Assembly: GCF_044324785.1 (NCBI RefSeq)
Contig: NZ_CP172127.1
Direction: 5' to 3' (one strand)
From: Escherichia coli
GTDB taxonomy: Bacteria > Pseudomonadota > Gammaproteobacteria > Enterobacterales > Enterobacteriaceae
Length of the DNA: 64,000 nucleotides
Shown here: positions 9,282 to 59,765 of the stretch, one piece after another
Layout of the letters: each line of letters starts with the position of its first letter
How positions within the stretch are numbered: the stretch's first letter is position 1
Notes under the pieces: generated by a model
Database searches by the model: none
What the model was told of the DNA's origin: nothing
Seen by the model: only the letters and a program-made list of their open reading frames with translations
Translations under genes and position numbers: made by a program

Positions 9282-9291
9282 GTTCGCCTCG

Positions 9292-9762
9292 TTACTCGAT
9301 GACGACCAGCGGCTCGTCAAATTCTACCGGTTGTCCACTTTCGACCAGAATTGCTTTCACGGTACCGGATTTGTCCGCTTCGATCTGGTTCATCATTTTC
9401 ATGGCTTCAACGATGCACAGGGTATCGCCCACGTTGACTTTCTGACCCACTTCGATGAACGCTTTTGCGTCCGGGCTTGGGGTGCGGTAGAAAGTACCAA
9501 CCATCGGGGAACGTACGATGTGACCACTGATTTCCGCTGCTGCTGGCGCTTCCATGGAAGGAACGGTCGCCGGAGCGGCTGCGTTAGATTGAGCTGGCTG
9601 CTGCATCATTGGTGCAGCGTAAGCTTGTTGCATCACAGGGAAACTTGCGGCAGGAGCTGCACGGCTAATGCGTACTGACTCTTCGCCTTCAGAAATTTCC
9701 AGTTCGGAGATGCCTGATTCTTCAACCAGCTCGATCAGTTTTTTAATCTTACGAATATCCAT
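9292..9762 (-). CDS. accB: Biotin carboxyl carrier protein
   Basis: 156-aa ORF with Ala/Pro-rich linker and biotinylation motif [10 protein letters not shown]; immediately upstream of accC. Confidence 0.95.
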
Positions 9763-10525
9763 GAGTGGGTTCCGTACTCTTTGTTTAGTGTGATTGTGAC
9801 AGGCGTTTCACCGCCGTCTGTAAAGCGTATGCCCCGACAGCTGTATGCATAGCGATAAATTCCAGCAGGCCGGGACGCCGGTCTATTTTGCCCCAGAGTG
9901 TCAATGTTAGACTTGACGGACATTGTGCAGCGATCTGCTGCTATCCTCCGGCAAAAAACAAAATATACCTTCGTTGCGCCAATGTCACCTTTTCCGCAGC
10001 GCAAAAACTGCGTCAGGGAGGACGAGGTCGCACATTATAACGATTTCGTAGCAATTGGCAGCTAAATACTGGTCTTATCAGGGAAGATAATCAACAGCTA
10101 ACATGTAAATAACCTTCAACACCGTGTAATTTGCAACAAGCCGCACAATTCACGAAATTAGCGCCATCATCGACGGAACTTCTTATAACGTAAGGCTAAA
10201 AGCTGTAAAGCCAGCCCTGCGAAGATGAGGGGCTGCAATGAGATAATCTTCACAGACCACAAATAATGTAGGGATGCCAGGATCGCGACAAGATCGACGA
10301 CATTACGCAGCGGTTGCTGGGGATTGCCCAATTTTCACTGCATCGTCTGGATAAATGTGAATGCTAAAGCACGCAAAATCAACCGCCTGACAATGCTCAG
10401 CATGAAATAGGTTTAACTGGTTAATTTGTAATCAAACAAAATCAGATTATTCCCCCCATTTTGCAGAAGGTAAACTGTTTTGTCAGGCGGCAGTACGGCT
10501 ATGTGATGCACTGCCGCGTGACAAT

Positions 10526-10554
10526 AAAAAAGCCGATTTGGTAGCAAAATCGGC
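10526..10554 (-). terminator. Rho-independent terminator after the 276-aa gene
   Basis: Stem GCCGAT(TTG)/(CAAA)ATCGGC followed on the minus strand by a T-run (plus-strand AAAAAA at 10526-10531); a second hairpin GCGGCAGT...ACTGCCGC lies at ~10487-10517. Confidence 0.5.
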
Positions 10555-10619
10555 TTCGGTGAGTTTGCAGCATTCATCACATACTCCGACAAGCTTTTTC
10601 AAGCATGACGGAGGTTGCG

Positions 10620-11450
10620 TTAATGCAAGGTTTCTACCCAGGGATAAAAGTGACCGTTACGGCGGATGAATATCTGTGTTGTCAGAGGATGGTCATCCTC
10701 ACGGAAGCATTGTTCTGTTAACTGTCGTAATGCGCTGAGATTTGCTGGCTGATCATTGTGGGTGAAAAACAGTTTTCCTCTGGAGGGAACTGTCACTAAC
10801 AGGTCGCCGCATTCAGGATCGGGTGATTGCACCCAAAGATCGTCAATGAGCATCAGACTGGGCTCATAAGTACCCCCTGCGGAGATAACGGCAACTTTTC
10901 CATCGTTTGCGCCGGTATCAACGATTTCAGCCGTAACTTCCGGCAATATTTGCTTCAAATTACTGATGGCTTGTTCGCGGTCAATGGTCACTTCGCAGCG
11001 CATCAGATAGCGCATGGTTTCGCTACCGTCTTCAGCAAACAGGATAATTAACTCATCGTTAAAGTCTTCCCAGGCAAAATCAAGCGAGGCGTTGAGGACC
11101 TCTGGATCAGACTCATACTGGCTAAGCTGTTGGCGAACGGTATCCAGCCAGGCTTTTTCTTTAATCACCGGGACAATACAGCGCCCGGTCGGCAGCATTT
11201 CTGCAAGCTGTTTCAGCATATCTGCAGCCACTTCTTCCAGCGGGTCTGGTGCGGCTTGATAACGTTTGTAAGCATCATCAAGGGTGATTTCCACCGTTTG
11301 GTGACCCGTATCAATGCGCATCAATTTATGGTCAGTCGAAATCATGACTTTCCAGTTTGGATGATGTTGTACAACTTCCTGACCAAGGTGTTCGACGAAA
11401 GCTGTCAGGCTAACCGCTTTTCCCGTTAACCGATTGAATAATGATTTCAA
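10620..11450 (-). CDS. Hypothetical protein, 276 aa, unknown function
   Basis: Long uninterrupted ORF; TTG start with GAGAGGG ~8 nt upstream, 37 bp downstream of acuI in the same orientation; own terminator; acidic, no predicted membrane segment; I cannot assign a family by recall. Confidence 0.6.
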   Translation of the reverse strand: MKSLFNRLTGKAVSLTAFVEHLGQEVVQHHPNWKVMISTDHKLMRIDTGHQTVEITLDDAYKRYQAAPDPLEEVAADMLKQLAEMLPTGRCIVPVIKEKAWLDTVRQQLSQYESDPEVLNASLDFAWEDFNDELIILFAEDGSETMRYLMRCEVTIDREQAISNLKQILPEVTAEIVDTGANDGKVAVISAGGTYEPSLMLIDDLWVQSPDPECGDLLVTVPSRGKLFFTHNDQPANLSALRQLTEQCFREDDHPLTTQIFIRRNGHFYPWVETLH

Positions 11451-11486
11451 AATGAGTTCCCTCTCTTATTAATCCTTGCTAAATGG

Positions 11487-12461
11487 TTAGTTAACCTTCA
11501 CCAGCGTGCGACCCTGGATCTGGTTATTAATGATGGCCTCGGCAAATTTCGGTGCCTCTGCCAGAGATATTTCTTTTGCCGCCTGGGTATAGAATGATTC
11601 CGGTAAATCGGCGACCAGTCGCTGCCAGGCTTGTGCGCGGCGTGCTGGTGGCGTCATCACTGAATCCACCCCCTGTAAACGGACATTACGCAGAATAAAT
11701 GGCATGACCGTGGTTGGCAGAGTAAAACCACCCGCCAGACCACAGGCCGCCACGCAGCCGCCGTAATTCATTTGCGCCAGCACTTTTGCCAGCACTTTGT
11801 CGCCAACGGTGTCAATTGCCCCAGCCCAGAGTTGTTTTTCCAGAGGACGGGATTCGGCAAACTCATCGCGAGGGAGAATACGGCTGGCACCTAAACTTTT
11901 CAGATATTCATGGGTACTTTCGCGACCGGAAACGGCAACGACCTGATAACCCAATTTATGCAGCAGCGCCACGGCGGTACTGCCGACGCCACCACTGGCA
12001 CCCGTTACGACAATCTCGCCGTCCTGCGGGCGAACACCGGCATCTTCCAGCGCCATCACACACAGCATGGCGGTAAAACCGGCAGTACCGATAATCATTG
12101 CTTTACGCGCGTCCAGCCCTTGCGGCATGGCAACCAGCCAGTCACCTTTCACTCGCGCCTGCTCCGCCAGCCCACCCCAGTGGTTTTCACCAACGCCCCA
12201 GCCAGTGAGTAATACCTCCTGACCGGCATGAAAACGCGGATCTTCGCTGGTGCGTACAGTTCCGGCAAAATCGATCCCAGGAATCATCGGAAAATTACGG
12301 ATGATTTTTCCCTTACCGGTAATTGCCAGCGCATCTTTGTAGTTCAGGCTCGACCAGTGAACATCAACCGTGACATCGCCCTCCGGCAGGCGACTTTCGT
12401 CCAGAGTCTGTACCGATGCGAGAGTTTTGCCGTCCTGCTGTTCTAAAAGTAACGCCTGCAT
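11487..12461 (-). CDS. acuI: Acrylyl-CoA reductase (zinc-type alcohol dehydrogenase family)
   Basis: 324-aa ORF recognised as E. coli YhdH/AcuI; divergent from csrD. Confidence 0.9.
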   Translation of the reverse strand: MQALLLEQQDGKTLASVQTLDESRLPEGDVTVDVHWSSLNYKDALAITGKGKIIRNFPMIPGIDFAGTVRTSEDPRFHAGQEVLLTGWGVGENHWGGLAEQARVKGDWLVAMPQGLDARKAMIIGTAGFTAMLCVMALEDAGVRPQDGEIVVTGASGGVGSTAVALLHKLGYQVVAVSGRESTHEYLKSLGASRILPRDEFAESRPLEKQLWAGAIDTVGDKVLAKVLAQMNYGGCVAACGLAGGFTLPTTVMPFILRNVRLQGVDSVMTPPARRAQAWQRLVADLPESFYTQAAKEISLAEAPKFAEAIINNQIQGRTLVKVN

Positions 12462-12612
12462 AAGTGGTCCTCATGTGCATGATGGATTGGAAAATAATTT
12501 CTGAAGACTATACTCGCTAATGGAAAAGCAAAGCCGATGAAGCGCAATAAATTGCGAGATAAATCTGATTTGCTAGTATGCCCGCTTCCTCACTATCGGA
12601 GTTAACACAAGG

Positions 12613-14553
12613 ATGAGATTAACGACGAAATTTTCGGCCTTTGTTACGCTGCTCACCGGGTTAACAATTTTTGTGACTTTGTTGGGCTGTTCGCTAAGTT
12701 TCTACAACGCCATTCAGTATAAGTTTAGTCATCGCGTTCAGGCGGTGGCGACGGCGATTGATACCCACCTTGTGTCGAATGACTTCAGCGCATTAAGGCC
12801 ACAAATTACCGAATTAATGATGTCAGCAGATATCGTTCGTGTAGACCTGCTGCATGGTGATAAACAGGTTTATACCCTCGCCAGAAATGGTAGTTATCGT
12901 CCGGTTGGCACCAGCGATCTGTTTCGCGAACTGAGCGTTCCGTTGATAAAGCATCCGGGGATGTCGCTGCGTCTGGTTTATCAGGATCCGATGGGCAACT
13001 ATTTCCATTCGTTGATGACCACCGCGCCGCTCACGGGGGCGATTGGCTTTATCATTCTTATGCTCTTCCTGGCGGTACGCTGGTTACAACGGCAACTTGC
13101 CGGGCAAGAATTGCTGGAAACCCGGGCTACTCGTATCTTAAACGGTGAGCGTGGCTCTAATGTGTTGGGAACCATCTATGAATGGCCGCCCAGAACCAGC
13201 AGTGCGCTGGATACGCTGCTTCGTGAAATTCAGAACGCACGCGAACAACACAGCCGTCTTGATACGCTGATCCGCTCTTATGCCGCCCAGGACATGAAAA
13301 CCGGCCTCAATAACCGACTCTTCTTCGATAATCAGTTAGCAACGTTACTGGAAGATCAGGAGAAAGTAGGTACCCACGGGATCGTGATGATGATTCGTCT
13401 ACCGGATTTCAATATGTTGAGCGATACCTGGGGGCACAGCCAGGTAGAAGAACAGTTCTTCACTCTGACGAATCTGCTGTCGACATTTATGATGCGCTAC
13501 CCTGGCGCACTGCTGGCGCGTTACCACCGCAGTGATTTTGCTGCGCTGTTGCCCCACCGGACGTTAAAAGAGGCTGAGAGCATAGCCAGTCAGTTAATCA
13601 AAGCCGTCGATACCTTGCCGAACAATAAAATGCTCGATCGCGACGATATGATCCACATTGGTATCTGTGCCTGGCGTAGTGGTCAGGATACCGAGCAGGT
13701 AATGGAACATGCAGAGTCTGCCACGCGTAATGCGGGATTGCAGGGCGGCAATAGCTGGGCTATTTACGATGACTCGTTGCCTGAAAAAGGACGCGGTAAT
13801 GTTCGCTGGCGTACGCTTATCGAGCAAATGCTGAGTCGCGGCGGCCCGCGCCTTTATCAAAAACCGGCGGTTACTCGCGAAGGTCAGGTTCATCATCGCG
13901 AACTCATGTGCCGCATCTTCGATGGTAACGAAGAGGTTAGCTCGGCGGAGTATATGCCGATGGTCTTGCAGTTTGGCTTATCGGAAGAGTATGACCGCCT
14001 GCAAATCAGCCGTCTGATTCCACTATTGCGTTACTGGCCGGAGGAAAATCTGGCGATTCAGGTTACCGTTGAGTCGCTGATTCGCCCGCGTTTTCAGCGT
14101 TGGCTGCGAGATACGTTAATGCAATGTGAAAGATCGCAACGAAAACGCATAATTATTGAACTTGCAGAGGCCGATGTAGGTCAACATATCAGTCGTTTAC
14201 AACCTGTTATTCGTTTAGTGAATGCTTTAGGGGTACGGGTAGCCGTCAACCAGGCTGGTTTGACGCTGGTAAGCACCAGTTGGATCAAAGAACTTAATGT
14301 TGAGTTACTCAAGCTCCATCCGGGGCTGGTCAGAAACATTGAGAAGCGAACGGAGAACCAGCTGCTGGTTCAAAGCCTGGTGGAAGCCTGCTCCGGGACC
14401 AGCACCCAGGTTTACGCCACCGGCGTGCGTTCGCGAAGCGAGTGGCAGACCCTGATTCAGCGCGGTGTTACAGGTGGGCAAGGGGATTTTTTCGCGTCCT
14501 CACAGCCACTTGATACTAACGTGAAAAAATATTCACAAAGATACTCGGTTTAA
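12613..14553 (+). CDS. csrD: RNase E specificity factor with degenerate GGDEF/EAL domains
   Basis: 646-aa ORF with N-terminal membrane segments; recognised as CsrD (YhdA). Confidence 0.9.
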   Translation: MRLTTKFSAFVTLLTGLTIFVTLLGCSLSFYNAIQYKFSHRVQAVATAIDTHLVSNDFSALRPQITELMMSADIVRVDLLHGDKQVYTLARNGSYRPVGTSDLFRELSVPLIKHPGMSLRLVYQDPMGNYFHSLMTTAPLTGAIGFIILMLFLAVRWLQRQLAGQELLETRATRILNGERGSNVLGTIYEWPPRTSSALDTLLREIQNAREQHSRLDTLIRSYAAQDMKTGLNNRLFFDNQLATLLEDQEKVGTHGIVMMIRLPDFNMLSDTWGHSQVEEQFFTLTNLLSTFMMRYPGALLARYHRSDFAALLPHRTLKEAESIASQLIKAVDTLPNNKMLDRDDMIHIGICAWRSGQDTEQVMEHAESATRNAGLQGGNSWAIYDDSLPEKGRGNVRWRTLIEQMLSRGGPRLYQKPAVTREGQVHHRELMCRIFDGNEEVSSAEYMPMVLQFGLSEEYDRLQISRLIPLLRYWPEENLAIQVTVESLIRPRFQRWLRDTLMQCERSQRKRIIIELAEADVGQHISRLQPVIRLVNALGVRVAVNQAGLTLVSTSWIKELNVELLKLHPGLVRNIEKRTENQLLVQSLVEACSGTSTQVYATGVRSRSEWQTLIQRGVTGGQGDFFASSQPLDTNVKKYSQRYSV

Positions 14554-46727: not shown

Positions 46728-47069
46728 TTACCTGACGTTGTATTCTTTTATGTTAACACCCTTGATGCTGTATATACCTGTCCGCTTAATTCGCTTACCC
46801 TTTTTATTCGTAATAGTTGCTGTAAGTGTACTGCAGCGAATGGAATGACGTTCATCAATCACCAGCCGAATTGCTTCTGAAGCATCTTCCACCTCTAGAA
46901 GGTCGTGAGTCTTATTTAAGCCGAATGGAACAAGGTGGAAGGCAGTTTTTCCAGATGATTTTCTGGTTATTTTTACTGGATACAACACATCACCACTTTT
47001 ATGGATTAATTCAAGCTGTTCAATGTAAATCATAGCAACTTTCCTTCGTTTATCTGCATGAATATACAA
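46728..47069 (-). CDS. Orphan hypothetical protein in AT-rich DNA (113 aa from TTG; more likely 101 aa from the ATG at 47033)
   Basis: ORF in ~40% GC sequence; internal ATG at 47033 has AGGAAA 6 nt upstream; lysine-rich C-terminus; no family recognised; coding status unproven. Confidence 0.4.
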   Translation of the reverse strand: MYIHADKRRKVAMIYIEQLELIHKSGDVLYPVKITRKSSGKTAFHLVPFGLNKTHDLLEVEDASEAIRLVIDERHSIRCSTLTATITNKKGKRIKRTGIYSIKGVNIKEYNVR

Positions 47070-47120
47070 ACCGAAAATAGGAGATGCAATACAAAAGCTG
47101 TGGAAATATCAAACAGCCTC

Positions 47121-47378
47121 TCAATTTGGCAGGCAGCGTCTGCCAAATCTTTGCCGATGGAAATTCTGCAGACGGTGTCTGCAGAACTTCAACGTGTTGA
47201 TAAAAAGGTAAAAAAGCCTAATTTGGCGTAAGTTTTTTGCAGAGAACCCACGCTTATATCTTAGACTTAAATCCTTTGATAGTCGCTTGATTAGCTGCGC
47301 ACCATACGCAGCCCTAGCCTCGCCACCTTGTTCAAATTCGACAATCCGTCGGCCAATTTCCCAGTACGTCGCGGTCAT
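47121..47378 (-). pseudogene. yhcG: Frameshifted, truncated remnant of yhcG (DUF1016 PD-(D/E)XK nuclease-like)
   Basis: First ~57 codons (MTATYWEIGRRIVEFEQGGEARAAYGAQLIKRLSKDLSLRYKRGFSAKNLRQ) read like the YhcG N-terminus; the frame then degenerates and stops at 85 aa while a plausible continuation (LQTPSAEFPSAKIWQTLPAKL) is in another frame; the ~290 C-terminal codons of the 375-aa K-12 protein are absent. Confidence 0.6.
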
Positions 47379-47487
47379 TAACGCGTTAACACTACGTACC
47401 GTTTCCGTCCGGGCACTATCGAACTGGTGAATAATGTCTCCATGTACCCGCTTGTAGCCTAAATATCGCTACTTTATTTTTAACCAA

Positions 47488-48153
47488 TTAATAATATTTC
47501 AGTGTGATTTCCGCTGTGCCACTGAATTCCATCTTGTCCGTAACATTCAACTCCGACATCGCATTAATCGCAGAGCTGATTTTAAGTGGCACAGTTAGTG
47601 TGGTCAGATTTTGCGGTGAAGATGTACCAAATGCGTAAACGGTTGTGTTATCTGGGCTGACGATCTGCCAATTCCCAGTAGACTTTATCCATGTTGGATT
47701 GCTGCTATCAGTTGCTGAAAGTACAGAAACCCCTGTTCCGTTATCGACGGTAATCCCCATATTATCAATCATAATGGCCCATGCTCCGACCGGCTTATTT
47801 TTGAATAACCCCAGCCCCAGCAGGTCGCTTTGTGTTAATGCGCTACCGAGCGGAATTTTTGCCGCCATTGCAGTACCAGAATTGAGATCTTTAATAAGAA
47901 TCCCTGGGGCAGCGCTGCCTGGACAGCTAATTGATAGTTGGGTATTTTGATCTGGTAAGCGTGTGGCATCCTGGGTATTCATATTTGCAACAATATAGGT
48001 TCCAAGATTAATGACGCTATTCGTCAGGTTAATTGAACAGGAAGGCGGTTCCACCAACGCGCTAACATGGATGGTGATGTCTGCGGCACTGACATTGGTG
48101 GAACAGAAAAGCGTTATCAGGCCAATCAGCGATATTTTATTCATGACTATCAC
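47488..48153 (-). CDS. yhcF: Fimbrial-like protein (DUF1120)
   Basis: 221-aa ORF, GTG start overlapping the yhcE stop, signal peptide, C-terminus FSGTAEITLKYY. Confidence 0.75.
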   Translation of the reverse strand: MIVMNKISLIGLITLFCSTNVSAADITIHVSALVEPPSCSINLTNSVINLGTYIVANMNTQDATRLPDQNTQLSISCPGSAAPGILIKDLNSGTAMAAKIPLGSALTQSDLLGLGLFKNKPVGAWAIMIDNMGITVDNGTGVSVLSATDSSNPTWIKSTGNWQIVSPDNTTVYAFGTSSPQNLTTLTVPLKISSAINAMSELNVTDKMEFSGTAEITLKYY

Positions 48154-48722
48154 TCCGGTCGGCTATTCAGAGAAATGTTCAGGTCGTTGGTGAGCGTAAG
48201 TAAGTCTTGAGGGTTAATATCCTTGCCTGTGATCAATGGCAGTATCGCCAGTTGTACACTGGCCTGTGTTAGCGCCTGTTCGCGATCATGCTGCATAAAA
48301 GATATACCTTCCGAAGGTAATAAAACAATATTAGATGTACCGCCGTCTTGAAGTTGGTTGCTCACGGAAACACGAGACACAGAGGCACTCTGACCGCCTA
48401 TTGTCGGATTAGAGGCTTTGACTCGTATCACGCTCTGCTCGCCAAACTTAAATAGTGATTTTCCTTTATATGTCAATTTATTACCGTCAATCATGACGTG
48501 TACATAATGTGGTGAATCGCATTGAATATTCAGCGTAATATAGCGTTCTGGCAACGCAATACCATCCACCACCGTGGTATTGATGGTGTGTAATGTGCGT
48601 GAAGAACGATCAACCTTTCCCCAGGCAATATCCTGTTGGTTGGCTGTCACCTTACAGTTCTCGGCCAACGTAAATTGACTAAAAAAACAGGTTATTAGCA
48701 GAAGAGCCAAAGATGTTTTCAT
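48150..48722 (-). CDS. yhcE: Fimbrial-like protein, intact
   Basis: 190-aa uninterrupted ORF with signal peptide MKTSLALLLITCFFSQFTLA; no IS sequence present. Confidence 0.75.
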   Translation of the reverse strand: MKTSLALLLITCFFSQFTLAENCKVTANQQDIAWGKVDRSSRTLHTINTTVVDGIALPERYITLNIQCDSPHYVHVMIDGNKLTYKGKSLFKFGEQSVIRVKASNPTIGGQSASVSRVSVSNQLQDGGTSNIVLLPSEGISFMQHDREQALTQASVQLAILPLITGKDINPQDLLTLTNDLNISLNSRPE

Positions 48723-48734
48723 CTTGTTATTTCC

Positions 48735-51176
48735 TTATAAACAATGAGCTTGAACCGTTTCGTATACCACACTATCAGGCGCATCTTTGGGTAACGTATA
48801 TTGTAGATGGCATATTTTGCCATCAGGAAGAATAACCTTAAGAGTGTCCGTATTATTTTCAATGTTATTAATAAAGAAGGTGCCTTCTTCAACAACGGAG
48901 GTCAGATAGTTTCCCTGTGCGGTATGAACAGAACTATTCAGAGGTAAAAGGGCATTATTGAATCGCACATCCTGGAACATCACCCGACGTGCTGATAGCA
49001 CGGTGAAGGAAATACTTCCGACTGAATAACGCCCTTGTTTAACTTCTTGAGTAGCGTTTGCAATATCGGTTTTTTTAGCCAATGATTTGGGGTCAATTTC
49101 AACAATTGCCGTCTGGTACGGAGGTAAAACGGGCACAACAGCTTGCCCCCACCAGTCAGTCCATGCGGCACCCTGTGGCGTTTGAATTTGGACGCCAGCC
49201 TGTTTTTGGCTCAATTGGGCAATGGCCCAGGTATCAGCGATCCTGTCCGGGGAAAAGGTTATTCCATCCTTGTGCAGAGCGATCCCGCCATCAAGCGTGG
49301 CAGAAGAATAATGGCTGTCCGAGCCGCTTTGTCCCGCAGATAGTCCGAGGCGAGTATAATGTAGGTTAGTATTAAGGCCACCGCTGGCATTATTGCCACT
49401 ATCTTGGCTACGTTCATAGCTGACATAATAACTACTGTCTTTCAGGAAGGCGCCAGAAAGCGTTGAGCCAATGCGAGTATCATTATTTTCATGTCGCACC
49501 CAACTACTGGAATAATGGTTACCTAAAGGCACGTAAACAGTAAGGTTAAGTGAGTCTTCACTGTCATTTCCTTTTTCATGCCGGTAATAAAAATTGGTGG
49601 AGAAATATTTAAACTGCCTACTCCAGTTTATTGTGGTGTTAGTTGAATCACCGTCACGATAATAGCTTTTATTATTGGTATAACTTAGGCTAATTCCACC
49701 TAATAAATCGTGATACCAGGTCAGCGATCCAGTAAGCTCATTTTTATTGTAGGCATAGAATTTATTGTCATCTCCATAATCCCATGGTTGGTCGCTGATA
49801 TCGTCATTTTGCGTGGAATCAAGCAAATCGCGATAACCTCGCTCACTCCAGGTGTCGGTAACGGAAAAGCTTAAATTATCCAGCAGGTCTGCACCTAACG
49901 TGATCGCTGCCTGATTCCCTCGCTTATTATGATTATCATCGACCGCACTTCGGAGCTGAATAGAAGTTGACCAGTGAGTGAAAGGCTGAAAATCAACCCC
50001 GCCAGCAAAAGCATAATAGTTATTTGCGACGATGCCGCCTGTCGATAAAGTATAAGTATTAAAAACCGGCTGACTCCAGGCACCGCTTAACACCATCGGT
50101 TCGTCATCTTCTGCACCAACCTCGCGAACCCGGCCTACGGCAAAATTGTAGTTTGGTGTTCCTGTCACCGTTCGACGGAAAGAATCGCTAAAAACAGTAA
50201 ACTGGTCGCTACTCCCATCGCTTTCGATAACTGTCACATCCAGGTTACTGCTTTGATTCAGGACTGGAACGTTGGTTAAAGTAAATGGTCCCATTGGAGC
50301 CAAAGTAGAATAAATAAGCTGTTTATTTTGTCGGATTTCAATGCGTGCTTGCGATGATTTGACATTACCAGAAACCATCACATCATTACGTCTGTTTGGG
50401 GTTAGCGAAATATCAGGTTGTATCTGTACACCGTAAAGTGAGGCGCCGGAAAGTAGGGGGTTGGCAAGGTTGATCCCGCCTGCCTGCATATTTATTTTGC
50501 TTGCGGTGAAAGTATGTTCGGCATAAGTATAGAGATTGTCGAGATTGTGATCGCCATTAGATAAGGCAACCGAGGTACTATTACGTATTATCCAGTCGCC
50601 CATATTGATGCCGCTTTGTAGCGCAGCACTGGTATAATTATCATTATCGCCGTTATATTTATTAATATTATGCAATAATGAATAGTTTATAGTCGCCCCC
50701 GTCCCTCCAGTGGTGTAACCGCTAACCTCATCTGGGGATTGTAAGGCAATCGCCTCTGTCGGTAATAACACAAAGACTTTGTATTGCGCCGAATCGAAAT
50801 GTACCACCGCTGATGGATAGAGCATCTGCAATGTTTGGCAACGGTCGTCAGTTTCCGTTAAATTTTGTGGGATGATGACACCAGCTCTTTGCATCCAGTT
50901 AGTGTCAGCGCAAAGTTCGCCTTGTGGGTCAATAGTGATGGTAACATTGACATTTCGGTGACCATTAATGTCCATATTGACCTGTTGCGTGCCGGGAGGA
51001 AGACGTGCTTCTTTTGAAAAATAAGCCGCAACATTTTTATCTATACCAAATGAGCGTAACGCATCGCTATTGAAGTTAAGAGCGGTCTCCATCTCTTCCT
51101 GCGACGAAGCTGCCATAGCTATAATAGGAATAAAATGCAGCACTAGAAAGATCTTGTTGAGGGGAAAATATTTCAA
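48735..51176 (-). CDS. yhcD: Fimbrial outer-membrane usher
   Basis: 813-aa ORF with usher-type beta-barrel pattern and conserved C-terminal Cys pair; start may be at an internal Met. Confidence 0.9.
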   Translation of the reverse strand: MKYFPLNKIFLVLHFIPIIAMAASSQEEMETALNFNSDALRSFGIDKNVAAYFSKEARLPPGTQQVNMDINGHRNVNVTITIDPQGELCADTNWMQRAGVIIPQNLTETDDRCQTLQMLYPSAVVHFDSAQYKVFVLLPTEAIALQSPDEVSGYTTGGTGATINYSLLHNINKYNGDNDNYTSAALQSGINMGDWIIRNSTSVALSNGDHNLDNLYTYAEHTFTASKINMQAGGINLANPLLSGASLYGVQIQPDISLTPNRRNDVMVSGNVKSSQARIEIRQNKQLIYSTLAPMGPFTLTNVPVLNQSSNLDVTVIESDGSSDQFTVFSDSFRRTVTGTPNYNFAVGRVREVGAEDDEPMVLSGAWSQPVFNTYTLSTGGIVANNYYAFAGGVDFQPFTHWSTSIQLRSAVDDNHNKRGNQAAITLGADLLDNLSFSVTDTWSERGYRDLLDSTQNDDISDQPWDYGDDNKFYAYNKNELTGSLTWYHDLLGGISLSYTNNKSYYRDGDSTNTTINWSRQFKYFSTNFYYRHEKGNDSEDSLNLTVYVPLGNHYSSSWVRHENNDTRIGSTLSGAFLKDSSYYVSYERSQDSGNNASGGLNTNLHYTRLGLSAGQSGSDSHYSSATLDGGIALHKDGITFSPDRIADTWAIAQLSQKQAGVQIQTPQGAAWTDWWGQAVVPVLPPYQTAIVEIDPKSLAKKTDIANATQEVKQGRYSVGSISFTVLSARRVMFQDVRFNNALLPLNSSVHTAQGNYLTSVVEEGTFFINNIENNTDTLKVILPDGKICHLQYTLPKDAPDSVVYETVQAHCL

Positions 51177-51187
51177 GATAGCATTCC

Positions 51188-51889
51188 TTAATGATCAACA
51201 GGTAGATTTACACTGTTCACTTTTATTCCATAACGAGATAAAGGCTGTAGGATGACTTGATTAATTGGCAGCGAACTGGATAAAGTAGCCGTTAACGTTT
51301 CACCAGGTAAAATAAAGGTACGCAGCAGGTCTACCATTTTATTATTTTCAGGTATGATGATTTCAGGAGATAGACGAATCACGTAAGCGCCGGTATTTAC
51401 AACCTGTAAATTCGTACCTTGTTGTTTAAATTTTAAATCGCCCCATGGTTCTTTGTTTTTTTTAATGTTTTTTGGCGTGATGATGACAGGGATATCCTGT
51501 GTGTAAATAACATTCAGCTTAATGTTATCAGTTTTTTTTTCATCAGCATTTTTTGATGGAATACCACTAAATTGGGCTCGCATCATATGTTCTACCATAA
51601 GTGGTTTAGTCGTTTGTAATATGAAACGAACTTGTTGCCTTTTTCCCGATTCGACGCGTACGACAGGTTGGGTTGGTATTAGTTTAATACCACTGTTTTT
51701 TTCTTCATCAATCAGGCTGGTTCTGACATATAGCAATGCCGCATCGCTGCCAGTATTAGTCACATTAATACTGGCTTCGCCATCTTCCTCGTAGACTTCC
51801 AGTACTGGCGTTTCGGGCTGCATACCAGCGGTCCAACCATGGGAGGAGAAAAGACAGTAGCCGAAGAATAAATAACGTAAATATTTCAT
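51188..51889 (-). CDS. yhcA: Periplasmic fimbrial chaperone (PapD-like)
   Basis: 233-aa ORF with signal peptide and chaperone pattern. Confidence 0.9.
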   Translation of the reverse strand: MKYLRYLFFGYCLFSSHGWTAGMQPETPVLEVYEEDGEASINVTNTGSDAALLYVRTSLIDEEKNSGIKLIPTQPVVRVESGKRQQVRFILQTTKPLMVEHMMRAQFSGIPSKNADEKKTDNIKLNVIYTQDIPVIITPKNIKKNKEPWGDLKFKQQGTNLQVVNTGAYVIRLSPEIIIPENNKMVDLLRTFILPGETLTATLSSSLPINQVILQPLSRYGIKVNSVNLPVDH

Positions 51890-52007
51890 AAATTATAAAC
51901 GCATAATATAAAAAGAACGATACGCCCACAGAATGTGTAGGCGTTGTTTTATTAAATTATTCATGTATGTTATTTTTCAGTTAAAACTAAAAAATAACAG
52001 CAATAAA

Positions 52008-52754
52008 TTATTTATATTCCAGGAAGACTTCAAAGCCACCTGTATACTCTTCACGCCCGGTCACATCAGCGAAAGAGGCTTTATCCAGCAGCGCGACCGT
52101 TGTTTGTAGCGGGAAAACAACTGTTTTAGCTGGCGTGATGGAAGTCTTTCCTGGTTCTGCAACAGAAATACGACGAGTATTGGTTAAAGATACTGCACCA
52201 GCTGAATCTTTAGGCACGATGGTCCATGGCTGGTCAAGGTCGGTGCTATAGCTATAGATCAGCACTTTTTCAACTGGGGTAGGGTTTGCAACAGTGGTGA
52301 TTGTCGGGGTTCTGAATACAGTCCAGAATGCTCCAGCACCTTTGCCGCCAGCACGCAGTAGTGGGTTGATCTGATTTTTTGAAGAGCCGAGAGTTAAATC
52401 AACTGTGCGACCATCTGCAGTGTTAATGATGGTAGGATTGCCGTTAGAAAGCGTTTTTACTTTGCTTTCATCAGCGGCATTGAGATGATTAGTTCTTAGT
52501 GCAACATACATATCGGTCGGACAATCAACTTTAAGCTGACTTTCTTTGATCATCGGTAGGTTATTCGATGCATCGGTAAGTTGATCAACAGCCTGAGTAC
52601 CAAAATCCAGAGTGTTACCCTCAATAATACCCAGTGAACATCCCGAAGGGACTAAAAGACCTTTCACGGTAATGGTTGCATCCGCAGCCAGAGCTGAACC
52701 GGTGGTAATAGCCAGAATCGCTACGCTGAGCGTAAGCTTTTTAACTAATGACAT
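52008..52754 (-). CDS. gltF: Periplasmic DUF1120 protein GltF
   Basis: ORF track 52008-52790; signal peptide MSLVKKLTLSVAILAITTGSALA favours the start at 52754; C-terminus GGFEVFLEYK resembles yhcF. Confidence 0.7.
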   Translation of the reverse strand: MSLVKKLTLSVAILAITTGSALAADATITVKGLLVPSGCSLGIIEGNTLDFGTQAVDQLTDASNNLPMIKESQLKVDCPTDMYVALRTNHLNAADESKVKTLSNGNPTIINTADGRTVDLTLGSSKNQINPLLRAGGKGAGAFWTVFRTPTITTVANPTPVEKVLIYSYSTDLDQPWTIVPKDSAGAVSLTNTRRISVAEPGKTSITPAKTVVFPLQTTVALLDKASFADVTGREEYTGGFEVFLEYK

Positions 52755-53200
52755 GTTGTTAAATTCCATGTTAAGTAAATGTTGTATCAAGACGTGAAAA
52801 CATTGTTTTTAATAAAGCTTTGAGAGTATACAAAATATTTCTTTAAATAAATTTTAAAATATATATGTTTTATTTTTTACATAATTTATGTGAATTGTTT
52901 TTTTGTTATTTTGGGATCGGGTGTCACTTTTTAGGTGTTATTTATTCGATTTATGAATATTTACTTTAAAAAATCAGAATATATAAAGACAGTTTTTTCG
53001 GGGATTGGCTCGTATTGTAAGAGCTGAAATTGTTTACTCTGTGGATTCGAGGAAGAAAGGTACTAAGACAATTATTTGTCTTGGTTTGCCCATCTATAAT
53101 TGAAAATGCGTTACGAGTTGTGGAAGATGAAGATAGATGAGGTGAGGATCCAGCTCCCTGTCATCTGTTATGCTGTCAGGGAACCGGAAAGTGCTAGGGC

Positions 53201-54631
<1,431 letters not shown>

Positions 54632-57600
54632 TTACTGCGCCTGCACGCGCAACTCTGCTGCGCTACGACTACGGTGACCCAGCAGTGCTTTTACATCACT
54701 GGACTTCGGTTTAACCAGCGCAAATTTAGTGGCGAAGGTTGACCAGTTCGCCAGAATCTCTTCACCGCGCTGAGAGCCAGTATGCTGAACATGCTCGGTG
54801 ATAAGACCACGCAGATGCTCTTCATGGATTGCCAGATCGTCAACGCTTAAGACCTCGACCAGTTCCGGGTTAACGCGTTTGCGGAAATCGCCGCTTTCAT
54901 CGAGAACGTAAGCGAAGCCACCGGTCATGCCCGCGCCGAAATTCACGCCGGTTTTACCCAGAATACAGACGATACCGCCCGTCATATATTCACAGCCGTT
55001 GTCGCCAATGCCTTCTACCACGGTGATAGCACCGGAGTTCCGCACGCCGAAACGTTCACCCGCGCGGCCTGCGGCATACAGACGACCACCGGTCGCGCCA
55101 TACAGGCAGGTGTTGCCGATAATGCTTGCTTCGTGGCTGCGGAAGGCTGAGCCAACCGGAGGACGAATGGCGATTAAGCCGCCCGCCATGCCTTTACCAA
55201 CATAGTCGTTGGCATCACCGGTCAGGTACAGTTCCACGCCGCCCGCGTTCCACACGCCGAAGCTCTGGCCTGCGGTGCCGTTGAAGTACGCTTTGATCGG
55301 ATCGGCTGCCAGCCCCTGATCGCCGTGCGTCTGGGCGATATAGCCTGAAAGCGATGCGCCGACAGAACGGTCGGTGTTGCGAATATCGAACCAGAAGGTT
55401 TTGCTCTGGCGTTCATCGACAAACGGTTTCGCCTGTTGCAGCAACTGCGCGTTCAGCAGACCGTTATCAAACGGCGGGTTGTTTTCGGTGCAGTAAAGTG
55501 CCTTACCAGCATGCGGCTCGGCAGTCTCCAGCAGCTTCGACAGTGCCAGTTTCTGCTGTTTGGCGGTGAAACCGTCCAGCTCTTTCAGCAGGTCGGTGCG
55601 ACCAATCAGATCCACCAGACGCGTTACCCCCAGCTGTGCCATCAGCTCGCGGGTTTCACGAGCGATAAACTCAAAGTAATTCGTCACCTTGAATGGCAGG
55701 CCGTGATAGTGATTCTTACGCAGTTTGTCATCCTGAGTTGCCACACCCGTTGCGCAGTTGTTCAGGTGGCAAATACGCAGATATTTACAGCCGAGCGCCA
55801 CCATTGGGCCAGTGCCGAAGCCGAAGCTTTCTGCGCCGAGAATCGCCGCTTTGATTATATCAACGCCGGTTTTCAGGCCGCCATCGACCTGCAAACGGAT
55901 TTTATGACGTAAACCGTTGGCAACCAGCGCCTGTTGGGTTTCCACCAGGCCGAGTTCCCACGGGCAGCCTGCATATTTCACTGACGACAGCGGGCTTGCG
56001 CCGGTGCCGCCGTCATAGCCCGCGATGGTGATCAAGTCCGCATAAGCTTTCGCCACGCCAGTCGCGATGGTGCCAACGCCTGGTTCGGACACCAGCTTCA
56101 CGGAGATCATCGCTTTCGGGTTAACCTGCTTGAGGTCGAAAATAAGCTGCGCTAAGTCTTCGATAGAGTAGATATCGTGGTGCGGCGGCGGGGAGATCAG
56201 CGTCACTCCGGGCACCGAATAGCGCAGTTTGGCGATGTAAGGAGTGACTTTGTCGCCCGGCAACTGACCGCCTTCGCCCGGCTTCGCGCCCTGGGCGACT
56301 TTAATCTGAATGACGTCAGCATTGACCAGGTACGCCGGAGTAACGCCGAAGCGACCAGAAGCCACCTGCTTGATGCGCGACACTTTGTTAGTGCCGTAGC
56401 GCGCCGGATCTTCACCACCTTCACCGGAGTTGGAGTTGCCGCCAATGCTGTTCATCGCTTCCGCCAGCGCCTCGTGGGCTTCCGGGCTTAACGCGCCGAT
56501 AGACATTGCGGCGGTATCGAAGCGTTTAAACAGTTCGCTTGCCGGTTCAACATCAGCAATGTTGACTGCGTTTTCACCCGGCGTAATTGCCAGCAGATCG
56601 CGCAGCGTGGTTGCCGGACGCTCATTAACCAGCTTCGCGTATTCCTGATAGTCGCTGTACTCGCCGCTTTGTACCGCCTGTTGCAGTGTGCGCACCACGT
56701 CTGGGTTGTAGGCGTGGTATTCGCCGCCGTGCACATATTTCAGCAGGCCGCCCTGGCTGATGGGCTTACGCGCCAGCCAGGCACGTTTCGACAGATTCAG
56801 CAGATCCTGCTGGAAGTCTTCAAAGCTTGCCCCGCCAATGCGGCTGACCGCGCCCTGGAAGCACAGGCCCACTACATCATCGTGTAGACCGACCGCTTCA
56901 AACAGTTTCGAGCAGCGGTAAGAGGCGATGGTGGAGATGCCCATTTTGGACATGATTTTGTACAAGCCTTTGTTGATGCCGTTACGGTAGTTGAGCATCA
57001 CGGTACGATAATCTTTGGCAATCGCGTGGGTGTCTACCAGGCGGCCCAGCGTTTCATAGGCAAGGTACGGATAAATAGCCGTCGCACCGAAGCCCAGCAA
57101 CACGGCGAAGTGGTGCGGATCGCGGGCGCTGGCGGTTTCGACGATGATGTTGGCATCGCAACGCAGGCTTTGATCGACCAGACGGGTCTGGATCGCGCCA
57201 ACCGCCATCGGGGCTGGAACCGGCAGGCGATCTTTAGCGATATTCCTGTCGGAGAGCACCAGCAGCACAGTGCCGCTACGTACCATTTTTTCAGCTTTGT
57301 CGCACAGCTCTTTGACCGTCGCTTCGAGCGTGGTTTTAGTGACGTCAAAGGTGATATCCAGTGTATCTGCGCGGTAGTGCTCCTCTTTCATCGTCGTGAG
57401 CTGTTTGAAATCGGAGTAGAGCAGAATCGGCGATTTAAAGCTTAAACGGTGCGCCTGGCCCTCTGCTTCGCAAAAGACGTTCATTTCACGACCGATACTG
57501 GTGGCGAGCGACATAACATGCGCTTCACGCAGCGGGTCGATTGGCGGGTTAGTCACCTGGGCAAACTGCTGGCGGAAGTAATCGTAAATAATGCGCGGCT

Positions 57601-59185
57601 GACTGGAGAGCACGGCGAATGGGGTGTCGTCGCCCATCGAACCGACCGCTTCCTGACCGTTTTCGCCCAGTACGCGAATTACGGAGTCCAGCTCTTCCGC
57701 GCTGTAGTTAAACTGTTTCTGGTAGCTGGCAAGTGTGTCGTCGTCCAGTTCGCGGCTACCCACTTCTTCATCGGGCAGATCTTCAAACGGTACCAGTCGG
57801 CGGACGTTTTTCTCCATCCACTCTTTATATGGATGGCGGCTTTTTAGATCGTCATCAGTTTCTGCCGAGTGCAGAATACGCCCACTGCGGGTGTCGATAA
57901 CCATCAGTTCGCCTGGCCCGACGCGGCCTTTTTCGACCACTTCGTCAGGCTGATAATCCCAGATACCGACTTCAGAGGCGCAGGTGATGAGCTTATCTTT
58001 GGTGATGACGTAGCGCGCCGGACGCAGACCGTTACGGTCGAGGTTACAGGCGGCAAAACGACCGTCAGACATCACGATGCCTGCCGGGCCATCCCACGGC
58101 TCCATATGCATGGAGTTAAAGTCAAAGAAGGCGCGCAGTTCCGGGTCCATATCCGGGTTGTTCTGCCAGGCTGGTGGCACTAATAGACGCATGGCACGGA
58201 TGATATCCATCCCGCCTGCCAGCAGGAGTTCCAGCATGTTATCCATCGAACTGGAGTCAGAGCCGGTTTCGTTGACGAACGGCGCGGCGTCGTGCAGGTC
58301 AGGGATAAGCGGCGTCTGGAATTTATAGGTACGCGCACGCGCCCATTGGCGGTTACCGGTGATGGTGTTGATTTCACCGTTATGCGCCAGGTAGCGGAAC
58401 GGCTGCGCCAGCGGCCAGCGCGGTACGGTGTTAGTGGAAAAGCGCTGGTGAAACAGGCAGATGGCCGATTCCAGACGCAGGTCCGCGAGGTCCAGGTAGA
58501 AGCGCGGCAGATCCGCAGGCATACACAGACCTTTATAAATATTGACCAGATTCGACAGGCTACAGACGTAGAAGTCTTTGTCGGCTTCGAGACGCTTTTC
58601 AATGCGGCGGCGGGCGATAAACAGACGGCGCTCCATATCGCGCGGACGCCAGCCTGCCGGGGCGTTCACAAAAATTTGCTCAATGCGTGGCAGAGAGGAG
58701 AGGGCGATTTCACCCAGCACGCCTTCGTTAGTGGGGACATCACGCCAGCCCACAATCGATAAGGTTTCGCGTTGCAGCTCTTCTTCAACGATGCGGCGTG
58801 CGGCAGCGGCGAGTTCAGGATCTTTATTCAGGAATAGCATCCCGACGGCGTAGTTTTTCGCTAAACGCCAGCCGCGCTCCTGCGCAACGATGCGAAAAAA
58901 GCGATCCGGTTTTTGTAACAGCAAGCCGCAACCGTCACCGGTTTTACCATCGGCGAGAATCGCGCCACGGTGCTGCATGCGGGCCAGTGCGTGTATTGCA
59001 GTACGCACTACCTTGTGGCTAGGTTCGCCTTCTATGTGGGCGATCAGGCCGAAACCACAGTTATCCCTCTCAAGGGATTTATCGTACAACATATCGTGAA
59101 CCTCCCCCAGGCTCTGCGGGAACCCCACTTCCGAACCGCTGCGCACGGGCACAGAAAGAGCGTGGCGACGGGGTTTGCGTGTCAT
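54632..59185 (-). CDS. gltB: Glutamate synthase large subunit
   Basis: 1517 aa from MTRKPRRHALS with the catalytic Cys in ...ERDNCGFGLIAH; ORF track has a 23-codon extension. Confidence 0.95.
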   Translation of the reverse strand: MTRKPRRHALSVPVRSGSEVGFPQSLGEVHDMLYDKSLERDNCGFGLIAHIEGEPSHKVVRTAIHALARMQHRGAILADGKTGDGCGLLLQKPDRFFRIVAQERGWRLAKNYAVGMLFLNKDPELAAAARRIVEEELQRETLSIVGWRDVPTNEGVLGEIALSSLPRIEQIFVNAPAGWRPRDMERRLFIARRRIEKRLEADKDFYVCSLSNLVNIYKGLCMPADLPRFYLDLADLRLESAICLFHQRFSTNTVPRWPLAQPFRYLAHNGEINTITGNRQWARARTYKFQTPLIPDLHDAAPFVNETGSDSSSMDNMLELLLAGGMDIIRAMRLLVPPAWQNNPDMDPELRAFFDFNSMHMEPWDGPAGIVMSDGRFAACNLDRNGLRPARYVITKDKLITCASEVGIWDYQPDEVVEKGRVGPGELMVIDTRSGRILHSAETDDDLKSRHPYKEWMEKNVRRLVPFEDLPDEEVGSRELDDDTLASYQKQFNYSAEELDSVIRVLGENGQEAVGSMGDDTPFAVLSSQPRIIYDYFRQQFAQVTNPPIDPLREAHVMSLATSIGREMNVFCEAEGQAHRLSFKSPILLYSDFKQLTTMKEEHYRADTLDITFDVTKTTLEATVKELCDKAEKMVRSGTVLLVLSDRNIAKDRLPVPAPMAVGAIQTRLVDQSLRCDANIIVETASARDPHHFAVLLGFGATAIYPYLAYETLGRLVDTHAIAKDYRTVMLNYRNGINKGLYKIMSKMGISTIASYRCSKLFEAVGLHDDVVGLCFQGAVSRIGGASFEDFQQDLLNLSKRAWLARKPISQGGLLKYVHGGEYHAYNPDVVRTLQQAVQSGEYSDYQEYAKLVNERPATTLRDLLAITPGENAVNIADVEPASELFKRFDTAAMSIGALSPEAHEALAEAMNSIGGNSNSGEGGEDPARYGTNKVSRIKQVASGRFGVTPAYLVNADVIQIKVAQGAKPGEGGQLPGDKVTPYIAKLRYSVPGVTLISPPPHHDIYSIEDLAQLIFDLKQVNPKAMISVKLVSEPGVGTIATGVAKAYADLITIAGYDGGTGASPLSSVKYAGCPWELGLVETQQALVANGLRHKIRLQVDGGLKTGVDIIKAAILGAESFGFGTGPMVALGCKYLRICHLNNCATGVATQDDKLRKNHYHGLPFKVTNYFEFIARETRELMAQLGVTRLVDLIGRTDLLKELDGFTAKQQKLALSKLLETAEPHAGKALYCTENNPPFDNGLLNAQLLQQAKPFVDERQSKTFWFDIRNTDRSVGASLSGYIAQTHGDQGLAADPIKAYFNGTAGQSFGVWNAGGVELYLTGDANDYVGKGMAGGLIAIRPPVGSAFRSHEASIIGNTCLYGATGGRLYAAGRAGERFGVRNSGAITVVEGIGDNGCEYMTGGIVCILGKTGVNFGAGMTGGFAYVLDESGDFRKRVNPELVEVLSVDDLAIHEEHLRGLITEHVQHTGSQRGEEILANWSTFATKFALVKPKSSDVKALLGHRSRSAAELRVQAQ

Positions 59186-59765
59186 ACGCGCGCCTCGCAT
59201 TCGCCCCCTTGTTGTCCTTTCGCATCGGTTAATACGGTGAAGAGGGGATCTCAATTACTGCATAAATATGATGAGCAGGCTGCTCATCCAGAAAGCTTCC
59301 AGCGGATTTCCAACTTATCGGGAAAGCTGATACAGGTCAAATGGCAAGCTTATTGGTACAGAAATGTGCTTTAGCGCAAAATTCTTTATTAATTAGCTGA
59401 AATTAAAATAGATTTTCTATTTAAGACTAAAAGGGGAGTCGTTAGAGAAACAGCCAATTCCTGACTGTCATAAAGGCGTGTTAACCCTTATCCTGCCTTG
59501 AACTGGCGAGAAAACCAGCATTTTATACTGCCTTAATTGGTAATGACGTTTCATGCTACTGTTTTTGCCTAAAATCCATAAGGCGATAAAAAAATCTGAC
59601 ACAAGATAAGCAAAAATGATTTATGTGATCATGCATGAAATTTCGGTAATTTTGATTGATTATGCAGTTGATAAAAGCGGTCCGGGACGATTGATCCAGG
59701 TCATCGCCGAATTGAGCTAAAAATGGCAGGCTTTGGCCTCTTTTCAAGGCGCGGTCTATCAGATT

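Follow-up and report, generated by a model that had tools for sequence, protein, structure and literature searches.

GltF, YhcE and YhcF as probable subunits of a divergent, putatively beta-class chaperone-usher cassette beside gltD in Escherichia coli

Introduction

The gene gltF lies beside gltD and is co-oriented with gltBD, and the historical K-12 annotation places it in a gltBDF operon, an assignment that is still repeated (PMC8403718; RegulonDB gene list in PMC2374795). On its other side it is followed by chaperone-usher genes in the same orientation, which raises the question of which neighbours gltF belongs to. In 2010 Korea reportedly treated gltF-yhcADEF as a beta-class operon. Statements on the locus in PMC5216030, PMC8174762 and PMC11184843, after Nuccio and Baumler 2007, likewise assign gltF-yhcADEF to the Yhc beta-fimbrial locus.

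The question is addressed here in the window, a stretch of 64,000 nucleotides from E. coli (RefSeq assembly GCF_044324785.1, contig NZ_CP172127.1). The region 47437-53195 is very probably a self-contained beta-class chaperone-usher cassette between gltD and a yhcG remnant, with GltF, YhcE and YhcF as its subunits. That gltF is a fimbrial gene is already published for K-12; the divergent cassette and the reading of YhcE are new.

Architecture and boundaries of the cassette

Five co-oriented genes fill 47488-52754 on the minus strand, and all five open reading frames (ORFs) are intact (Table 1). The initial annotation had described three putative subunits around one chaperone and one usher, all co-oriented, and this layout holds. 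For yhcF, the ORF listing also contains an upstream in-frame GTG at 48153.

Table 1. Genes and sequence features of the cassette, in window coordinates
Feature	Position	Strand	Description
Upstream spacer, gltD stop to gltF	52755-53195	-	GC about 0.33; presumed promoter/regulatory region
gltF-like	52008-52754	-	ATG start, 248 aa; DUF1120 pilin-like subunit, candidate major subunit
AU-rich 14-bp hairpin directly 3' of the gltF stop	51968-51999	-	-11.9 kcal/mol
GC-rich 9-bp hairpin (51922-51944), then AUCGUUCUUUUUAU	51908-51944	-	From terminator scan; -12.7 kcal/mol
yhcA-like	51188-51889	-	233 aa; periplasmic PapD-type chaperone
yhcD-like	48735-51176	-	813 aa; outer-membrane usher
yhcE-like	48150-48722	-	190 aa; pilin-like, candidate tip subunit
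yhcF-like	47488-48144	-	ATG start, 218 aa; DUF1120 pilin-like, candidate minor/adaptor subunit

The boundary on the gltD side is sharp. In the composition profile the gltD stop marks precisely the point where GC content falls from about 0.56 to 0.33-0.46, and the window ceases to resemble E. coli IAI39 5 nt beyond that stop. The AT-rich spacer between gltD and gltF is part of the variable island. Comparison of the cassette ends with the IAI39 and K-12 spacers revealed no insertion scars or direct repeats, and a 101/113-aa ORF beside the yhcG remnant matched nothing in Pfam, NCBIfam, PADLOC or PHROGs.

GltF and YhcF as related pilin-like subunits

GltF and YhcF are homologous over their full length. 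BLASTP aligns them end to end with 25% identity over 251 columns (E 5e-8), and both reach the Pfam DUF1120 model (PF06551), GltF scoring 21.2 bits and YhcF 25.8, although against a gathering score of 21 bits their membership is marginal by Pfam alone. Family-wide evidence is broader: a search with the GltF/YhcF family profile matched 1,678 cluster representatives, and DUF1120 was matched by all of the 144 aligned relatives, 37 of which also matched Pfam Fimbrial (the window's own proteins stay below the threshold of that model). Two cysteines, a C-terminal glycine and a penultimate tyrosine are invariant in these 144 sequences.

The individual motifs are those of chaperone-usher pilins. GltF carries a signal peptide, the donor strand ADATITVKGLLV, the pair Cys39/Cys78 and a C-terminal G...Y motif; the donor strand of YhcF is ADITIHVSALV. 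Signal peptides with an n-region, a hydrophobic core and an A-x-A motif were read by eye in all three subunits (...SALA/ADATI, ...NVSA/ADITI and ...FTLA/ENCKV). Over the N-terminal part, from the signal peptide through the donor strand to the first strands, PapF and FimG match the profile of this family, with GltF ADATITVKGLLVPSGC aligned to FimG ADVTITVNGKVVAKPC, and the closest resemblance of the predicted folds is to chaperone-usher pilins. The features of a pilin (secretion, a predicted incomplete Ig-like fold, an N-terminal donor strand, a cysteine pair and the Gly...Tyr motif for chaperone recognition) are thus found in the window subunits, with the departures in YhcE described below.

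These results agree with the description of GltF and YhcF in the initial annotation as related secreted DUF1120-type proteins. The signal peptides it noted are visible directly in the sequence, and the similar C-termini it quoted (...GGFEVFLEYK in GltF, ...GTAEITLKYY in YhcF) are exact and coincide with the invariant glycine and penultimate tyrosine. The pairwise and profile comparisons it proposed for GltF, YhcE and YhcF detected homology throughout; the lack of GltF-YhcF homology that would have spoken against it was not seen.

YhcE as a candidate tip subunit

YhcE is more remote. Its DUF1120 score of 13.5 bits is below threshold, and on profile comparison (hhalign; YhcE family against GltF/YhcF family, probability 98.3%, E 1.7e-14) it is a third, distant member of the GltF/YhcF superfamily. 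It starts at the conserved cysteine and has neither an N-terminal donor strand nor the C-terminal tyrosine. Since the donor strand is missing, YhcE is a candidate tip subunit and probably the first to be incorporated. [quoted passage not shown]

Precedents exist. SafD of the Salmonella Saf pili is a single-domain tip subunit that accepts a strand and does not donate one, and AfaD and DraD are further accept-only tip subunits of a single domain. No sequence similarity of YhcE to SafD or AfaD was detectable; its placement at the tip is putative, as is any role in adhesion or invasion. A wider reading, with about even chances of being correct, is that beta systems encode a single-domain tip subunit (YhcE, its donor strand lost and its gene always after the usher gene), and that the gltD-yhcG interval is a hot spot in Escherichia, occupied on more than one occasion by a non-orthologous beta cassette.

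Chaperone, usher and relationship to known systems

The assembly machinery is clearly recognisable. The YhcA-like protein matches the chaperone family PF00345 (E 3.4e-17) and NCBIfam PRK09918 (212 bits, cut-off 183). The usher exceeds the cut-offs of PF00577 (280 bits) and PF13954 (PapC_N, 42 bits); its PapC_C match (PF13953) stays below, at 22.7 bits against 27. Its best NCBIfam model is PRK15304, at 710.6 bits slightly under the cut-off of 723, and the next-best model reaches 181 bits. K-12 YhcD has the same best model (1,273 bits) and is 35% identical to the window usher over 789 residues. On this model and this identity the window cassette is a candidate member of the beta clade, which Nuccio and Baumler 2007 reportedly defined by usher phylogeny.

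The K-12 Yhc locus shares with the window the gltD-yhcG site, gene order, orientation and the five protein families; every protein has the same best NCBIfam model in both, and a hairpin follows gltF in both. The loci differ in that sensitive blastn finds no DNA similarity between the two cassettes, their flanking spacers are unrelated, and yhcE, intact in the window, carries IS5 in K-12. Identities to K-12 GltF, YhcA, YhcD, YhcE and YhcF are 26, 39, 35, 26 and 27%, so K-12 names for the window genes are positional only: the names gltF, yhcE and yhcF used in the initial annotation are right as to site and family, but the proteins, at 26-27% identity, are not K-12 orthologues. Scores of the window subunits against their nearest NCBIfam equivalog models, PRK15301-15303 ("hypothetical protein"), are 40.5, 60.7 and 46.6 bits, with cut-offs of 337, 337 and 226; K-12 GltF, YhcF and YhcE likewise fall under the cut-offs of these, their own nearest models, which therefore do not define K-12 orthology. 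Two other cassettes are closer to that of the window than the K-12 one is, their five proteins showing 32-59% identity: L014, which follows gltD in a different lineage, and L013, from the fadH-ygjK site of E. ruysiae.

With type 1 (Fim) and P (Pap) pili, the classical gamma/pi systems, the cassette has in common a PapD-like chaperone, an usher, a donor strand, a cysteine pair and a penultimate tyrosine. The N-terminus of GltF comes close to matching the FimG donor strand, and pilin-fold matches were obtained. Unlike Fim and Pap, the window cassette has no two-domain lectin adhesin, its subunits exceed the length of Fim and Pap pilins by about 70-90 residues, and its usher is only distantly related to theirs (119 bits with the FimD model, 711 bits with PRK15304).

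Transcription across the gltF-yhcA spacer

The genes yhcA, yhcD, yhcE and yhcF are separated by 11, 12 and 5 nt (the yhcF start codon lies 5 nt past the yhcE stop), whereas gltF is followed by a spacer of 118 nt. Sister strains share this spacer almost letter for letter. Its predicted folding energy is -29.3 kcal/mol (z -5.5), and counterpart hairpins occur in cassettes L013, L014 and L009. Judged by its structure, the GC-rich hairpin with its U-run looks like an intrinsic terminator, an attenuator or a 3' mRNA stabiliser.

If the hairpin acted as a full terminator, gltF would be monocistronic, yhcADEF would have a promoter of their own, and GltF would be a chaperone-usher substrate encoded outside the operon rather than by its first gene. 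The length of the spacer and the recurrence of a hairpin and U-run after gltF in relatives fit this arrangement, as does a genomic SELEX site for RNA polymerase holoenzyme in the K-12 gltF-yhcA-yhcD region (PMC5493296), but the sole promoter-like match in the spacer (51984-51956, 9/12) lies upstream of the GC-rich hairpin, and the region holds fewer matches than shuffles do. The U-run in the window is, moreover, offset from the stem, which makes the structure a suboptimal terminator. Fim and Pap systems likewise place the major subunit gene first and a terminator-type hairpin after it, for which the 3'-terminal terminator structure of papA mRNA is the precedent, and a leaky terminator behind the major pilin gene is the norm in fimbrial operons (pap, PMC5927463). 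A separate gltF transcription unit is considered unlikely. What the spacer contains is a hairpin with no convincing promoter after it, not the pair of terminator and independent promoter that would set gltF apart from yhcA, and the proposal of the initial annotation that gltF is the first gene of the operon is retained as the probable reading.

The start of transcription is less distinct. The promoter scan found no promoter-like site upstream of gltF, the overall total of sites was below that of shuffles, and an alignment of the regions upstream of five cassettes, made for a shared promoter, was AT-rich and uninformative. A search upstream of gltF for a phase-variation switch, either an invertible element of the fim kind or long inverted repeats, turned up only low-complexity AT repeats. 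Between gltD and gltF no terminator with a U-run was found on the minus strand (a hairpin directly after gltD lacks one); with no canonical terminator there, read-through from gltBD is possible, in line with what earlier K-12 genetic work reportedly claimed for a gltBDF operon (a claim that PMC8403718 still cites).

Proposed assembly and the question of function

Assembly order and the division into major and minor subunits can be proposed from motifs, predicted folds and gene order. GltF, YhcE and YhcF would be exported by Sec, captured in the periplasm by the YhcA-like chaperone, and polymerised by the YhcD-like usher through donor-strand exchange. YhcE, with an acceptor fold and no donor strand, could occupy only the distal tip and would be incorporated first; YhcF and GltF, each with a FimG-like donor strand, would join after it. 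GltF, encoded first and followed by the hairpin and U-run, is probably the major and most abundant subunit. The hairpin may end or stabilise most transcripts after gltF, with a fraction reading into yhcA-D-E-F under the presumed co-transcription.

The cassette might instead be cryptic or decaying and build no structure, GltF, YhcE and YhcF being relics, or periplasmic or afimbrial surface proteins, with no YhcE-tipped polymer. No beta-class fimbria has ever been observed, visualised or characterised (PMC5216030), and a large RNA-seq compendium places the K-12 yhcE fragment with the annotated genes that were detected least (PMC10392735). Cassettes of the K-12 type are often disrupted by IS elements, and the usher of one relative has stop codons; the window cassette, however, has five intact ORFs, and all five genes are called in sister strains with 98.5-99.99% identity across this locus. 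AT richness like that of the upstream region is typical of silenced, horizontally acquired DNA, silencing in this case being presumed. Against decay stands also the invariance of the donor-strand-exchange motifs in 144 diverged relatives, which indicates purifying selection on features related to assembly. The window cassette may be cryptic too, but loss of any assembled product is judged improbable, and the assembly proposed above is the preferred reading.

Distribution of gltF and its independence from gltBD

Genome comparison separates gltF from gltBD. Among 5,426 complete E. coli genomes gltBD is present in 5,416 and K-12-type gltF in 1,148; of these 1,148, 1,121 hold 80% or more of the stretch from gltF to yhcE. 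In IAI39, gltF and yhcADEF are absent together, and gltD abuts yhcG. Five-gene cassettes were compared in eight independent genomic contexts; they occur in the fadH-ygjK interval of E. ruysiae, and elsewhere at lplA-deoD, at fdoG-fdhD and at a T6SS-adjacent site. Viewed as a possible accessory gene of gltBD, gltF is neither conserved with gltBD nor diverging with it. Co-divergence with the chaperone-usher genes, joint absence in IAI39 and cassettes at unrelated loci bear out the initial annotation in assigning gltF to the former rather than to gltBD, and the gltBD neighbourhood reflects the insertion site, not function. In the same direction, Goss et al. in 2001 reportedly detected no contribution of gltF to nitrogen regulation.

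That gltF is a glutamate synthase or nitrogen factor of a gltBDF operon, standing beside unrelated yhcADEF, has accordingly become highly improbable and is largely refuted by this distribution: co-orientation and possible read-through are outweighed by the signal peptide, pilin-like fold and motifs of GltF, by its 26% identity to K-12 where GltD has 99.4%, by the unequal counts of gltBD and gltF, by the gltD-yhcG junction of IAI39, and by GltF homologues that lead chaperone-usher cassettes at loci lacking gltBD.

The main value of this result is for annotation, as some recent papers and regulon lists still put gltF in a gltBDF operon, while co-divergence, joint presence and absence and the unrelated loci mark it as a fimbrial subunit gene. 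It also yields predictions for the least-studied chaperone-usher clade, namely GltF as major subunit, YhcE as a tip without a donor strand, and a conserved hairpin that would set stoichiometry. The cassette represents an uncharacterised E. coli fimbrial variant, and adhesin-typing schemes based on K-12 would probably miss it. Megablast and sensitive blastn found no window-type cassette in the 5,426 complete RefSeq E. coli genomes; the exact proteins of the window can nevertheless be found in hundreds of drafts that carry the E. coli label.

Organization of the locus

The five cassette ORFs are co-oriented, and the span first proposed for them is exact, running from the start codon of gltF to the stop codon of yhcF. 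Intergenic distances are 446 nt for gltD–gltF and 118 nt for gltF–yhcA; the remaining three are 11, 12, and 5 nt.

Features of the window and compared loci (cassette gene names are positional, after K-12)
Feature	Sequence	Position	Strand	Remark
gltB	window	54632–59254	minus	upstream of cassette
gltD	window	53201–54619	minus	upstream of cassette
stem-loop	window	53149–53189	minus	directly 3' of gltD stop
cassette	window	47488–52754	minus
GltF-like	window	52008–52754	minus	ORF, 248 aa
PapD-type chaperone (yhcA-like)	window	51188–51889	minus	ORF, 233 aa
usher (yhcD-like)	window	48735–51176	minus	ORF, 813 aa
YhcE-like	window	48150–48722	minus	ORF, 190 aa
YhcF-like	window	47488–48144	minus	ORF, 218 aa
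yhcG remnant region	window	46728–47436	minus
yhcG N-terminal fragment	window	47121–47378		85 aa
unrelated ORF	window	46728–47069		101/113 aa
gltD–yhcG junction	window	47437 and 53195
gltD–yhcG junction	L008 (IAI39)	8765–8995
gltD–yhcG junction	L001 (K-12)
IS5 in yhcE	L001 (K-12)	6557–7751
cassette	L013 (E. ruysiae)	8001–13236
usher	L018 (further cassette)	8522–11027

gltF and the chaperone-usher genes

The gltF gene belongs with the chaperone-usher genes and not with gltBD, as co-divergence, joint absence or presence, mobility, and the island boundary indicate. Window GltD is 99.4% identical to that of K-12; GltF, YhcA, YhcD, YhcE, and YhcF are 26, 39, 35, 26, and 27% identical to theirs, and all five show 32–59% identity to two other cassettes. 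In E. coli IAI39, gltD directly adjoins yhcG. K-12-type gltF occurs in 1,148 of 5,426 complete E. coli genomes (gltBD in 5,416), and 1,121 of those 1,148 also have 80% or more of the stretch from gltF to yhcE. Similarity to IAI39 ends 5 nt past the gltD stop, where the GC fraction drops from about 0.56 to 0.33; the entire gltD–gltF spacer is therefore part of the island.

Among the closest relatives of the window's cassette is one at the fadH–ygjK site in E. ruysiae GCA_019840085.1, about 50% identical to it (YhcE 32%), so all five genes, the gltF homologue among them, have moved as a unit between chromosomal sites. More distant cassettes lie at the lplA–deoD and fdoG–fdhD sites and beside a type VI secretion cluster. 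Besides one or more DUF1120 genes, each of these cassettes encodes a chaperone and an usher and has a YhcE-like gene, in most cases with a further DUF1120 gene; gltBD was not found near the cassettes at these four sites.

These results confirm the observation of the initial annotation and support its interpretation that gltF is the first gene of a fimbrial-like operon. The assignment is correct but not new, because it is already published: one source lists gltF in the Yhc beta-class chaperone-usher locus, crediting Nuccio and Baumler 2007 and Korea et al. 2010 (PMC5216030), 'gltF-yhcADEF' is one of 12 K-12 chaperone-usher operons (PMC8174762), and adhesiomeR groups gltF with the Yhc genes (PMC11184843). 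The old 'gltBDF operon' label is still found in places (PMC8403718, PMC2374795); the current RefSeq name is 'DUF1120 domain-containing protein'.

Pilin character of GltF, YhcF, and YhcE

The proposed homology of GltF and YhcF is real: BLASTP aligns them end to end (25% identity, E 5e-8), and the Pfam DUF1120 gathering score of 21 is passed by YhcF (25.8 bits) and barely by GltF (21.2 bits). Their profile retrieves 1,678 cluster representatives (E <= 1e-3; 1.84 billion proteins searched), nearly all 215–260 aa long. DUF1120 matches all 144 members of the family alignment, and Pfam 'Fimbrial' additionally matches 37. This alignment shows no variation at two Cys, at two Gly, or at the penultimate Tyr, which makes the G-x7-Y-x motif, spotted from the C-terminal peptides correctly given for GltF and YhcF, the most conserved family feature; the penultimate residue is Tyr in 144 of 145 full-length representatives.

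That these proteins are probably pilins is indicated by several concordant findings. In PDB, the family profile hits PapF (E 5.7e-4) as well as FimG (E 8.7e-4), the matches covering the signal peptide, the N-terminal extension, and the first strands, and the GltF mature N-terminus ADATITVKGLLVPSGC aligns with the FimG donor strand ADVTITVNGKVVAKPC. AlphaFold models GltF with confidence (pLDDT 85.6, pTM 0.80), apart from the N-terminal extension, which is unstructured and of low confidence. Pilin-likeness scores of such proteins are moderate. With about 90 residues outside the pilin core, they would be enlarged pilins.

YhcE is not recognised by Pfam (DUF1120 at E 0.086 only). Profile comparison agrees with the suggestion that it is a third subunit: a YhcE-family profile (31 sequences) matches that of GltF/YhcF at a probability of 98.3% (E 1.7e-14, 158 columns), from the first conserved Cys onward. 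This Cys stands at median position 24 in YhcE proteins, 1–5 residues past the signal-peptidase site, and at position 39 in GltF/YhcF proteins, after a 15-residue extension. YhcE lacks the C-terminal Tyr, and in each of the seven cassettes examined a YhcE-like gene comes after the usher. The new element is that YhcE is a pilin homologue lacking the donor strand. Under the established mechanism of donor-strand exchange, a subunit that accepts but does not donate a strand can occupy only the first-incorporated, distal position; YhcE is thus a predicted tip subunit. Its function has been called unclear, and beta fimbriae are said to be without tip subunits (PMC5216030).

Transcription signals

The gltF–yhcA spacer contains two predicted hairpins (-29.3 kcal/mol, z -5.5), the second GC-rich and followed by a U-run. 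A terminator together with an independent promoter between gltF and yhcA had been named as evidence that would count against the initial interpretation; the hairpin is terminator-like, and no credible promoter was found after it in the scan. In L013, L014 (after gltD in another lineage), and L009, cassettes of unrelated sequence, equivalent hairpins with U-runs (-15 to -20 kcal/mol) stand behind the first subunit gene; that of K-12 is weaker. This predicted hairpin in independent cassettes is new here. In the case of papA, the major pilin gene is followed by a terminator-type structure that yields stable, abundant pilin mRNA (PMC5927463), and the conserved hairpin fits the same fimbrial-operon design. 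By this analogy, a putative leaky hairpin supports GltF as candidate major subunit.

No U-run terminator was found after gltD in the window, so read-through from gltBD into gltF is possible. The stem-loop directly 3' of gltD is stable (12 bp; region -22.5 kcal/mol, z -2.5), and lacks a U-run. For gltBD it may serve to stabilise the mRNA 3' end, or it may be a Rho-dependent or processing site. At the corresponding position, K-12 has another strong hairpin, different from this one.

Insertion site and distribution

The gltD–yhcG site is occupied by two non-orthologous cassettes, K-12 type and window type. No DNA similarity was found between them, spacers included, which suggests repeated acquisition at one site. 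In Escherichia the junction has three states: empty (IAI39, 183-nt spacer), K-12-type cassette, and window-type cassette.

Exact window GltF occurs on 301 contigs, and NCBI labels the cassette proteins E. coli; the window-type cassette is absent from all 5,426 complete RefSeq E. coli genomes searched. Judged from sequence, it is an uncharacterised, highly divergent new member of an already known kind of system. The gltBD DNA (window 53201–56200) reaches no more than 97.4% identity with any of the 5,416 complete E. coli genomes, so this lineage, labelled E. coli, lacks a close complete-genome representative in RefSeq. The best matches are the phylogroup D/F-type strains IAI39 and CE10.

Beta-class cassettes are often inactivated: IS5 interrupts K-12 yhcE, IS2/IS3/ISVsa5 lie in yhcD of other strains (matches H19, H26, H34, H42), and the L018 usher has two in-frame stops. 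IS5 insertions in the K-12 gltF–yhcA spacer were recovered by an evolution experiment (PMC8403718).

Window yhcG (DUF1016/PDDEXK nuclease family) is a remnant: its first ~17 codons are gone at the cassette junction, and in place of its 3' part stands an unrelated ORF that matches nothing in Pfam, NCBIfam, PADLOC, or PHROGs. The gene is intact (338–357 aa) in sister strains L003–L005, and the window's variant is shared by L002, L006, and L007.
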